From the sequence record CP109674.1: DNA of 64,000 nucleotides; one strand, 5' to 3'. The notes under the pieces are model-generated. The model was not told the DNA's origin, did no database searches, and saw nothing but the letters and a program-made list of their open reading frames with translations. A program made the translations under genes and the position numbers. The DNA is from a plasmid. Positions 3,642 through 4,644 of this stretch are shown here, piece by piece; position 1 is the first letter of the stretch, and each line of letters begins with the position of its first letter.

Positions 3642-4644
3642 CTACCTCTCACTAGTGAGGGGCGGCAGCGCATCAAGCGGTGAGCGCACTCCGGCACCGC
3701 CAACTTTCAGCACATGCGTGTAAATCATCGTCGTAGAGACGTCGGAATGGCCGAGCAGATCCTGCACGGTTCGAATGTCGTAACCGCTGCGGAGCAAGGC
3801 CGTCGCGAACGAGTGGCGGAGGGTGTGCGGTGTGGCGGGCTTCGTGATGCCTGCTTGTTCTACGGCACGTTTGAAGGCGCGCTGAAAGGTCTGGTCATAC
3901 ATGTGATGGCGACGCACGACACCGCTCCGTGGATCGGTCGAATGCGTGTGCTGCGCAAAAACCCAGAACCACGGCCAGGAATGCCCGGCGCGCGGATACT
4001 TCCGCTCAAGGGCGTCGGGAAGCGCAACGCCGCTGCGGCCCTCGGCCTGGTCCTTCAGCCACCATGCCCGTGCACGCGACAGCTGCTCGCGCAGGCTGGG
4101 TGCCAAGCTCTCGGGTAACATCAAGGCCCGATCCTTGGAGCCCTTGCCCTCCCGCACGATGATCGTGCCGTGGATCCTTGACCCGCAGTTGCAAACCCTC
4201 ACTGATCCGCATGCCCGTTCCATACAGAAGCTGGGCGAACAAACGATGCTCGCCTTCCAGAAAACCGAGGATGCGAACCACTTCATCCGGGGTCAGCACC
4301 ACCGGCAAGCGCCGCGACGGCCGAGGTCTTCCGATCTCCTGAAGCCAGGGCAGATCCGTGCACAGCACCTTGCCGTAGAAGAACAGCAAGGCCGCCAATG
4401 CCTGACGATGCGTGGAGACCGAAACCTTGCGCTCGTTCGCCAGCCAGGACAGAAATGCCTCGACTTCGCTGCTGCCCAAGGTTGCCGGGTGACGCACACC
4501 GTGGAAACGGATGAAGGCACGAACCCAGTGGACATAAGCCTGTTCGGTTGGTAAGCTGTAATGCAAGTAGCGTATGCGCTCACGCAACTGGTCCAGAACC
4601 TTGACCGAACGCAGCGGTGGTAACGGCGCAGTGGCGGTTTTCAT
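3642..4644 (-). pseudogene. intI1: intI1 integrase gene inactivated by an 11-bp deletion (atcgaaatcca) that causes a frameshift
   Basis: Two overlapping minus-strand ORFs (3642-4286 and 4006-4644) together cover IntI1. Comparison with the intact copy at 17696-18709 shows gtgccgtg[atcgaaatcca]gatccttgac missing near 4178. Confidence 0.9.
4529..4557 (+). promoter_or_regulatory. Pc: Cassette promoter Pc (-35 TGGACA, 17-bp spacer, TGG-TAAGCT -10), weak Pc with a TGN-extended -10
   Basis: Sequence tggacataagcctgttcggttggtaagct lies inside the 5' end of intI1 and reads toward the cassettes. Confidence 0.7.

Follow-up and report, generated by a model that had tools for sequence, protein, structure and literature searches.

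The sequence from 3642 to 4644 of the window (the whole 64,000-nucleotide stretch of plasmid record CP109674.1 that was analysed) is very probably a genuine loss-of-function allele of intI1 belonging to the Taiwanese blaIMP-8-aacA4-catB3 integron lineage, as judged from sequence comparison. The allele is not new, being already public under a Klebsiella pneumoniae protein entry, and because broken integron integrases are also common, the finding is correct but ordinary. The carbapenemase cassette had been named blaIMP-4 in the first-pass annotation; this name was wrong, the protein being an exact match to the subclass B1 metallo-beta-lactamase IMP-8. Integrons with blaIMP-4 were only 93.1% identical to the region, which is the same as that of pEC-IMP and pEC-IMPQ apart from an 11-bp gap.

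That the intI1 gene beside the carbapenemase cassettes is broken by an 11-bp deletion, as the same annotation had claimed with coordinates that proved right, was borne out by the alignment and the open reading frames. Two copies of the 5'-CS are present in the window (3440-4689 and 17494-18754), and these are base-for-base identical save for one 11-bp gap. In local alignment, 3440-4172 matched 17494-18226 over 733 bp and 4173-4688 matched 18238-18753 over 516 bp, each with 0 mismatches, and pairwise comparison of the two intI1 copies gave one 11-bp indel and no other difference. Outside the gap, intI1 of copy 1 was 100% identical to both the intact copy and intI1 of pEC-IMPQ, and no further intI1 was located in the window by tblastn. 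Since the difference is a single indel between otherwise identical 1.25-kb repeats, chance is not at issue as its source. Placement of the deletion was unambiguous, as it cannot slide and lacks a flanking direct repeat, and on the coding (minus) strand nucleotides 473-483 of the 1014-nt gene are lost, beginning at the second position of codon 158. The features that define the lesion are as follows:

3440..3464, plus strand: IRi, the 25-bp terminal inverted repeat of the blaIMP-8 integron (exact match to TGTCGTTTTCAGAAGACGGCTGCAC), start of 5'-CS copy 1 and left edge of its identity with copy 2
3642..4644, minus strand: intI1 delta-11 pseudogene, 1003 nt instead of 1014
4172..4173: deletion junction, where ATCGAAATCCA is missing (minus-strand sequence TGGATTTCGAT, codons 158-161)
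18227..18237: the 11 bp ATCGAAATCCA, present in copy 2 only (local alignment)

The claim that IntI1 is thereby split into two ORFs also held. By tblastn, residues 1-162 were placed at 4644-4159 and residues 162-337, in another frame, at 4172-3645. The two ORFs are:

4006..4644, minus strand: N-terminal ORF, 212 aa, with 157 native residues (the SAM-like DNA-binding domain and Arg146) followed by 55 out-of-frame residues
3642..4286, minus strand: C-terminal ORF, 214 aa, of which the first 38 are foreign and the rest are native residues 162-337

The catalytic residues of IntI1 are Arg146, Lys171, His277, Arg280, His303, and the nucleophile, Tyr312 (numbering per PMC2095811). Copy 1 has no single 337-codon frame that holds all six: Arg146 stands alone in the first frame, and the other five are encoded by the 214-aa ORF, out of frame with it. 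In the Pfam comparison, the 212-aa product kept PF13495 and, of PF00589, profile positions 2-53 only, and the 214-aa ORF held positions 53-169. Copy 1 would therefore be expected to yield no active tyrosine recombinase.

The first element (3440-8113) contains attI1, Pc, and attC-bounded cassettes, and owing to the frameshift it has no functional integrase gene of its own. Its parts are:

4529..4557, plus strand: Pc, variant PcW-TGN-10, by pattern match (TGGACA, 17-nt spacer, TGgTAAGCT)
4657..4672: LexA box CTGTTTTTTTGTACAG, overlapping the intI1 promoter
4716..4786, plus strand: attI1 (approximate extent), with the crossover GTT at 4780-4782
4797..5537, plus strand: blaIMP-8, the first cassette, encoding exactly the IMP-8 protein and identical in DNA to blaIMP-8 of pEC-IMPQ
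~5541-5617: attC of blaIMP-8, ending in GTTAGGC
5636..6190, plus strand: aac(6')-Ib (aacA4) cassette gene, with attC at ~6185-6256 ending in GTTAGAC
6285..6917, plus strand: catB3, without attC, its stop codon 15 bp from the qacEdelta1 start at 6933
6933..8113, plus strand: 3'-CS, with qacEdelta1 at 6933-7280 and sul1 at 7274-8113

The extent of attI1 adopted here, about 65 bp, is what we take to be that of Partridge et al. 2000. The promoter PintI1 presumably occupies 4671..4699 on the minus strand, with the -10 hexamer TAGACT at 4676-4671 and the -35 hexamer TTGCTG at 4699-4694, where both hexamers are putative and the -35 was assigned partly by its position. The -10 position agrees with a 3-bp overlap with the -10 of P2 (PMC8876359). 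P2 itself, at 4648-4673, has a 14-nt spacer and is therefore the inactive form. A simple promoter scan detected neither Pc nor PintI1 in either copy; the definition of the PcW-TGN-10 variant and its 15-fold strength are from Jove 2010 (PMC2791841), and the LexA consensus CTG-N10-CAG is from Cambray 2011 (PMC3108266). Pc of copy 1 lies 355 bp from the intI1 deletion and is untouched, and because attI1 and the cassettes are untouched as well, expression of blaIMP-8 should be unaffected.

The downstream intI1 at 17696-18709 had been described in the first-pass annotation as intact and without cassettes, and both statements were confirmed by a 337-aa frame and by a 5'-CS that runs straight into strA-strB:

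17494..17518, plus strand: IRi of 5'-CS copy 2, directly adjoining the ISCR1-dfrA19 region
17696..18709, minus strand: intact intI1, 337 aa, variant IntI1 P32_H39
18594..18622, plus strand: Pc of copy 2, PcW-TGN-10, pointing into strA-strB
18754..18755: end of 5'-CS copy 2, where attI1 and the position of the PintI1 -35 are replaced by strA-upstream sequence
18867..20506, plus strand: strA (aph(3'')-Ib) and strB (aph(6)-Id), not cassettes, directly downstream of the truncated 5'-CS

IntI1 of copy 2 matched PF13495 and PF00589 (E = 1.9e-49), with all six catalytic residues present. Most of attI1 had been reported as lost from this copy; the loss is real, but it extends to all of attI1, as the 5'-CS breaks off 91 bp upstream of where the crossover GTT would lie and AAACAAAGTTAG was absent there. 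The LexA box (18722-18737) and the -10 of PintI1 (18736-18741) are kept, and the position of the truncation relative to the assumed -35 hexamer indicates that the gene's own promoter has probably lost its -35 box. From its sequence, the second element (17494-18754) is classed as an orphan intI1 and not as an integron able to receive cassettes. Nor is the intact state of copy 2 stable, given that in the sibling assembly GCA_051194695.1 (0 mismatches over 14 kb) copy 2 is deleted too.

These features qualify the claim that the carbapenemase array is frozen in cis, which was right in that its own integrase is dead but overstated in the word frozen, as IntI1 works in trans and is routinely supplied in this way in recombination assays (PMC2791841). 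The blaIMP-8 and aacA4 cassettes should still be movable by IntI1 acting in trans because their recombination sites are kept, whereas catB3 is immobile whatever the state of the integrase because it has no attC. Within the window, the downstream gene is, as claimed, the only source of IntI1 in trans, but it would be a poor backup, being the P32_H39 variant without attI1 and probably without a -35 box; compared with R32_H39, P32_H39 is 336-fold less active in excision and about 3-fold less active in integration (PMC2791841). Since the array relies on this weak, attI1-less second copy, which is already gone from sibling isolates, the blaIMP-8 cassette should seldom be lost or reshuffled, and we infer that in practice the array is strongly stabilised and not absolutely frozen. 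The blaIMP-8-aacA4-catB3 array was equally invariant in many plasmids with intact intI1.

The 212-aa product was identical, residue for residue, to GenBank AAK13429.2 (UniRef100_Q9AMR2), including P32/H39 and the 55-residue tail. This entry is titled 'DNA integrase form delta 1' and comes from Klebsiella pneumoniae; the window differs from it in host and plasmid context. Identity of the proteins implies that the entry's gene has this 11-bp deletion too, and in a Pc background like that of copy 1. We take AAK13429.2 to be the product of the original blaIMP-8 integron record AF322577 (Yan, Ko, Wu, AAC 2001). The same 212-aa product was found in four NCBI assemblies of 2025 (GCA_051194855.1, GCA_051194695.1, GCA_051194975.1, and GCA_051987565.1) and, from independent reads, in the Logan assembly of run SRR33086162. 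Candidates for a corresponding 'delta 2' form were also considered: one of 193 aa starting MERACG was not on record in the protein collection, a 159-aa form starting MLPESL is generic and common to many truncated intI1 calls and therefore uninformative, and a 262-aa cluster member (P0004) was rejected as a second allele because it was a noisy, error-ridden intI1 call. Open-access text searches for an 11-bp deletion with intI1, and for AF322577, AAK13429/AAK13430, and the 2025 assembly accessions, returned nothing relevant.

At the nucleotide level, the junction was searched with 50-nt and 31-nt queries, and the ISCR1 junction described below was used as a control, which recovered NZ_CP109678.1. 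The delta-11 junction gave no match in PLSDB (~72,000 plasmids), complete E. coli genomes, GTDB representatives, or JGI metagenomes, and some 20 IMP-8-family records in PLSDB all retain the 11 bp. Three of the 2025 assemblies (GCA_051194695.1, GCA_051194855.1, and GCA_051194975.1) share with the window a delta-11 allele adjoining blaIMP-8. They differ at the second intI1 copy: GCA_051194695.1, with 100% identity to the window across 12.6-14 kb, has the deletion there, GCA_051194855.1 has an intact copy of the R32 type, and GCA_051194975.1 has a second IMP array in its place. Two of these three assemblies have an intact ISCR1. Across the relatives, the deletion was seen in the IMP copy only, in both copies, or in all of a set of tandem duplicated IMP arrays, and these mosaic states may partly reflect assembly or polishing ambiguity in the 1.25-kb repeats, GCA_051194695.1 being fragmented with the region present several times.

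The delta-11 allele is old, as its deposit under AAK13429.2 shows, and through homologous recombination or gene conversion it appears to pass from one 1.25-kb 5'-CS repeat to the other. We think it rather unlikely that the dead allele is actively replacing the intact copy in the plasmid lineage by gene conversion. Equally unlikely in our view is the series of stages that could be proposed for it, in which the window would carry a tract over the Pc SNP at 18615 only (G in the window, C in pEC-IMPQ and GCA_051194855.1), GCA_051194695.1 would have received the deletion too, and GCA_051194975.1 would have duplicated arrays that are all deleted. If true, a carbapenemase plasmid would have been caught in the course of becoming integrase-free, possibly because selection favours a stable array or the stronger Pc-TGN-10 before strA-strB.

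A related explanation, doubtful but to be taken seriously, is that delta-11 spreads under selection, either because a cost is removed or because blaIMP-8 is locked by Pc, with gene conversion leading toward an integrase-free plasmid; the alternative is a neutral hitch-hiker. The allele, which by our reading of accession AAK13429.2 is presumably about 25 years old, has in relatives taken the place of the intact one at the second locus and occurs in every copy of a duplicated array, which speaks for selection. Loss of integrase function is widespread (PMC3108266), and in experimental evolution intI1 frameshifts restore fitness and sweep (PMC3510236), but the reported cost of the integrase was measured in a host without LexA (PMC3510236). 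A repressed intI1 should cost little here because both copies keep an intact LexA box and Enterobacterales hosts have LexA. Moreover, the intact allele dominates among the PLSDB records given above, plasmids with intact intI1 conserve the array just as well, and a handful of assemblies is too few to give the direction of conversion.

An origin of the deletion in sequencing or assembly error, such as a mis-polished repeat in a plasmid that really carries two intact intI1 genes, is highly improbable. An exact 1.25-kb repeat is a typical site of polishing errors, the junction was absent from the four collections searched, and the otherwise identical pEC-IMPQ has the 11 bp. Against this, the exact product recurs in AAK13429.2, in four assemblies with at least three structural contexts, and in an assembly of raw reads, which makes an error peculiar to the window very unlikely; that one and the same 11-bp error should recur at an identical base in every one of these records is not credible, and the recovery of the ISCR1 junction indicates that the short-query search works. 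Although the two ORFs jointly cover all native residues except 158-161, the C-terminal ORF has its own ATG, and the old database entry calls the product a 'form' of integrase, it is barely conceivable that the 212-aa and 214-aa products assemble into a functional enzyme or that ribosomal frameshifting restores a near-full-length IntI1. Tyrosine recombinases of the IntI1 type generally form an active site from a single folded catalytic domain, the split places Arg146 and the other five active-site residues on different polypeptides and interrupts the Pfam model of the catalytic domain at profile position 53 of 172, no slippery sequence was seen at the junction, and the exact 214-aa sequence is nowhere recorded as a called protein in the collection.

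The first-pass annotation had also remarked that the intI1 and ISCR1 lesions are both 11 bp. The ISCR1 lesion is real and is present in both ISCR1 copies, but the coincidence of length has no mechanistic support:

8518..10048, plus strand: ISCR1 copy 1, with the 11 bp GAAAAACGTCT missing at 9525|9526 and ORFs of 375 aa (8518-9645) and 187 aa (9485-10048)
14228..15758, plus strand: ISCR1 copy 2, lacking the same 11 bp at 15235|15236

The repeats that contain them (7076-10280 and 12786-15990) are identical over 3205 bp with 0 mismatches, so that ISCR1 occurs twice in the position expected of a complex integron, and neither copy has an intact 513-aa transposase. A common mechanism for the two deletions was rejected, as they have no motif in common and neither is flanked by direct repeats; the GATC repeats that surround the intI1 deletion are spaced by 12 bp and not 11, and the ISCR1 deletion has at most 1 bp of microhomology. 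Deleted intI1 with intact ISCR1 was found in relatives L003, L005, L006, and L009, and deleted ISCR1 with intact intI1 in CP109678.1. The two deletions arose independently, each allele being found without the other and no motif being shared.

The blaIMP-8 array here cannot rearrange with its own integrase, although the practical consequences are small, and intI1 delta-11 reveals no new mechanism. PCR or annotation screens that equate intI1-positive with an active integron would misjudge this element. Because the delta-11 junction is rare, it should be useful, together with the ISCR1 delta-11 junction, as a lineage marker for Taiwanese IMP-8 integrons.

The closest known structures are pEC-IMPQ and pEC-IMP (NC_012556 and NC_012555), from Enterobacter cloacae in Taiwan. 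Positions 1-34718 of the window are colinear with 141778-176528 of pEC-IMPQ with five small differences only, and the two share blaIMP-8-aacA4-catB3, two ISCR1 copies, qnrB2, dfrA19, the orphan intI1-strAB, and mcr-9.1. The differences are that both intI1 and both ISCR1 copies are intact in pEC-IMPQ, the second intI1 there being R32 (PcW) where the window has P32_H39, and the window is rearranged relative to pEC-IMPQ past 34718; the context here is an IncHI2-derived mcr-9/ISCR1-qnrB2 region linked to an Enterobacter backbone of the IncFII(Y) type. Inactivation of integron integrases is frequent and can be selected, with parallels in pMUR050, which carries two inactivated intI1 copies, and in the frameshifts evolved in A. 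baylyi (PMC3108266, PMC3510236). As in those parallels, a small intI1 frameshift has left Pc, attI1, and the cassettes in place, on a plasmid with two 5'-CS copies. Unlike pMUR050, the window has one dead copy of two, and the LexA box is kept in both, whereas a correlation between loss of LexA control and integrase inactivation has been reported (PMC3108266).

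The IMP-linked 5'-CS (copy 1) and the strA-linked 5'-CS (copy 2) were compared by pairwise alignment, in which 3440-4172 equalled 17494-18226 and 4173-4688 equalled 18238-18753 without a mismatch over 1,249 aligned bases, and identity extended 1 base further, to 4689/18754. Each copy is opened by a perfect IRi (TGTCGTTTTCAGAAGACGGCTGCAC), at 3440 and 17494, and their sole difference is an 11-bp sequence, ATCGAAATCCA (18227-18237), that is missing from copy 1 between 4172 and 4173. On the coding strand, nt 473-483 of the 1014-nt intI1 are deleted, from the second base of codon 158; the placement cannot be shifted, and no direct repeat flanks the site. 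Owing to the deletion, the copy 1 gene reads as two overlapping ORFs, and a tblastn search of the 64-kb window with IntI1 identified no intI1 beyond the two copies listed here.

4006-4644, minus strand: N-terminal ORF of copy 1 intI1, 212 aa, overlapping the C-terminal ORF
3642-4286, minus strand: C-terminal ORF of copy 1 intI1, 214 aa, overlapping the N-terminal ORF
17696-18709, minus strand: copy 2 intI1, full IntI1 of 337 aa

The first-pass annotation had proposed an 11-bp indel between 3642-4644 and 17696-18709, a split of copy 1 IntI1 into two ORFs, and an intact second intI1, all of which were confirmed, the coordinates included.

The catalytic residues of IntI1 are Arg146, Lys171, His277, Arg280, His/Trp303, and Tyr312 (PMC2095811), and all six are at the expected positions in copy 2. 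The first frame of copy 1 keeps residues 1-157 (the SAM-like domain and Arg146) followed by 55 foreign residues up to the stop, and residues 162-337, among them the remaining five catalytic residues, are read in a different frame after 38 foreign residues. By Pfam analysis, the 212-aa product retained PF13495 and, of the catalytic-domain model PF00589, only profile positions 2-53; positions 53-169 of that profile were found in the 214-aa ORF. Copy 1 is predicted to yield no active recombinase.

An exact-sequence look-up placed the 212-aa product on nine contigs, from the NCBI assemblies GCA_051194855.1, GCA_051194695.1, GCA_051194975.1, GCA_051987565.1, and the Logan assembly of SRR33086162. 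The product is also identical to GenBank AAK13429.2 (UniRef100_Q9AMR2), 'DNA integrase form delta 1 [Klebsiella pneumoniae]', so the allele lacking the 11 bp (intI1 delta-11) was previously deposited and named and is not new. The neighbouring accession AAK13430 is presumably the IMP-8 of AF322577, a record by Yan, Ko and Wu (AAC 2001) that is said to be the first description of blaIMP-8 in Taiwan. The allele is rare, since its junction had no match in PLSDB, complete E. coli genomes, GTDB representative genomes, or JGI metagenomes, and the 11 bp are retained in every one of the approximately 20 PLSDB records of IMP-8-family integrons. The short-query junction search was validated with the junction of the 11-bp ISCR1 deletion, which recovered one PLSDB plasmid, NZ_CP109678.1 (E. 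cloacae, Taiwan), with an intact intI1.

Window positions 1-34718 are colinear with 141778-176528 of pEC-IMPQ (NC_012556, E. cloacae, Taiwan, IncHI2) and differ from it in exactly five places.

4172/4173: intI1 deletion in copy 1
7799: sul1 SNP (A vs T)
9525/9526 and 15235/15236: identical 11-bp deletion, GAAAAACGTCT, in two ISCR1 copies
18615: C-to-G change

The gene order is IRi, intI1 delta-11, attI1, blaIMP-8, aacA4, catB3, qacEdelta1, and sul1, followed by ISCR1 delta-11, the qnrB2 region, sul1, ISCR1 delta-11, and dfrA19, and then by IRi, intact intI1, the truncated 5'-CS, strA-strB, IS26, and mcr-9.1. The window sul1 at 7799 probably carries the common allele; the first sul1 of pEC-IMPQ has an unusual protein accession. 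The colistin resistance gene mcr-9.1 (23713-25332, minus strand) shares a segment with blaIMP-8 and lies downstream of strB, at a distance of about 5 kb. A 1,025-bp element at 2301-3325, which looks like a miniature Tn402-family element, has perfect 25-bp IRt-type inverted repeats (TGTCATTTTCAGAAGACGACTGCAC) at its ends, subterminal 19-bp repeats, and genes for a YafQ-family toxin and a serine recombinase; its right end is 114 bp from the IRi of the IMP-8 integron and faces it. Past 34.7 kb, the window no longer has the arrangement of pEC-IMPQ (34719-44596 equals 189147-199024 and 44591-51789 equals 181867-189063), the departure falling at IS903-type copies. IncFII(Y)-type Enterobacter plasmids match from about 44.6 kb, and those matching the right end (51790-64000) carry pco, ars, and repA, so the MDR/mcr-9 block, which derives from IncHI2, is carried by a different or hybrid backbone.

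The states of both intI1 copies and of ISCR1 in the window and related records are as follows.

Allele states (IMP-linked intI1; strA-linked intI1 with the base at the 18615 position; ISCR1)
pEC-IMPQ: intact; intact, C; intact
GCA_051194855.1: deleted; intact, C; intact
Window: deleted; intact, G; both deleted
GCA_051194695.1: deleted; deleted, G; deleted
GCA_051194975.1: deleted (array duplicated); replaced by second IMP array, deleted; intact
GCA_051987565.1: deleted, other sequence left of IRi; not on contig; intact, then 16S-methylase region
NZ_CP109678.1: intact; absent; deleted

Save for the copy 2 indel, GCA_051194695.1 had no mismatch to the window over 14 kb. Contig JBNAHY010000002.1 of GCA_051194975.1 contains a tandem duplication of 5'-CS-blaIMP-8-aacA4-catB3-3'-CS-ISCR1 up to dfrA19, with two blaIMP-8 genes that each adjoin a deleted intI1, and its recombinant 5'-CS is bordered by the dfrA19 flank to the left and by attI1-blaIMP-8 to the right, giving two IMP arrays, both deleted. 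This duplication is the apparent product of recombination between the two 5'-CS copies. The G at 18615, by which copy 2 of the window is the same as copy 1, resembles a short tract of gene conversion. The gradation seen at the second copy is as expected from homologous recombination or gene conversion acting on the 1.25-kb repeats; part of the pattern could be mimicked by ambiguous assembly or polishing of repeats, and the GCA_051194695.1 assembly is visibly fragmented. One GCA_051194695.1 contig has the ISCR1-qnrB2-sul1 module and two ISCR1, and another has one ISCR1 and lacks the module, which mirrors the difference between pEC-IMP and pEC-IMPQ and suggests either that the qnrB2 module looped out or that the population is mixed.

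The array had been attributed to blaIMP-4, and this assignment was not upheld: the 246-aa product of 4797-5537 matched 'subclass B1 metallo-beta-lactamase IMP-8' exactly, and a 1.7-kb query over the deletion and first cassette was 99.2-99.5% identical to blaIMP-8 integrons and only 93.1% to blaIMP-4 integrons. Identity to pEC-IMP and pEC-IMPQ was 99.4%, and the spans (1,712 bp in the records, 1,701 bp in the query) leave the 11-bp gap as the only difference there. The following elements were located next to copy 1.

4529-4557: Pc, PcW-TGN-10 variant (TGGACA, 17-nt spacer, TAAGCT preceded by TGG), 355 bp from the deletion
4657-4672: LexA box, CTGTTTTTTTGTACAG
4780: crossover GTT of the complete attI1

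P2 of copy 1 has the 14-nt spacer of the inactive form. The attC sites after blaIMP-8 and aacA4 end in GTTAGGC or GTTAGAC. Since Pc, attI1, and the cassette sites are untouched, blaIMP-8 expression should be unchanged by the deletion, and the blaIMP-8 and aacA4 cassettes stay substrates for integrase supplied in trans. Just 15 bp separate the catB3 stop (6917) from the qacEdelta1 start (6933), and no attC or core site was found 3' of catB3, which is fused to the 3'-CS, as in pEC-IMPQ, and not excisable whatever the state of intI1. The blaIMP-8-aacA4-catB3 array is reported to be highly conserved among Taiwanese Enterobacter plasmids (PMC12893162) and is unchanged in records whose intI1 is intact, so the deletion is not needed to account for its stability.

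The 5'-CS of copy 2 ends at 18754, 91 bp upstream of the expected attI1 crossover, with strA-strB directly after it. Copy 2 is thus without cassettes, as the first-pass annotation had noted, and has lost all of attI1 rather than most of it; functionally, it does not count as an integron. Copy 2 keeps the -10 hexamer of its intI1 promoter (TAGACT, 18736-18741 in plus-strand coordinates) and its LexA box (18722-18737). As the hexamer located 17 nt upstream of this -10, copy 1 has TTGCTG (4694-4699), which we take to be the -35 hexamer of the intI1 promoter, and copy 2 has AGCTCG, so that its promoter probably lacks a -35 box. The -10 position is consistent with the reported 3-bp overlap of the PintI1 and P2 -10 hexamers (PMC8876359). 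The copy 2 protein is the P32_H39 variant; Jove et al., who provided integrase from a separate plasmid, found excision 336-fold lower and integration about 3-fold lower than with R32_H39 (PMC2791841). The C at 18615 in copy 2 of pEC-IMPQ and GCA_051194855.1 gives R32 and PcW, and the G in the window changes R32 to P32 and gives a PcW-TGN-10 that faces strA-strB (18867-20506); the TGN-10 change makes Pc 15-fold stronger (PMC2791841). Of the earlier description of the array as frozen, the part that stands is that copy 1 appears dead; the array should rather be called dependent on a weak trans source.

The reported 11-bp ISCR1 lesion was found as the same frameshift deletion in both copies (8518-10048 and 14228-15758), which lie in identical 3,205-bp repeats (7076-10280 and 12786-15990, 100%); the 375-aa truncated product occurs on 26 public contigs. 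The equal length of the intI1 and ISCR1 lesions, singled out earlier as notable, is treated as a coincidence: no motif is common to the deleted sequences, neither lesion has flanking repeats (at most 1 bp of microhomology at ISCR1), and the alleles are distributed independently. All four combinations exist, and the two alleles therefore had separate origins and were later recombined.

Frameshifts in intI1 arise and sweep in experimental evolution because, when LexA does not control it, an active integrase carries a cost (PMC3510236). Both copies have an intact LexA box and the hosts belong to the Enterobacterales, so selection for delta-11 is possible and not required. Inactivation of intI1 of this kind is commonplace and well documented; 43-46% of IntI homologues are predicted to be inactive, and plasmid pMUR050 has two intI1 genes that are inactivated (PMC3108266).
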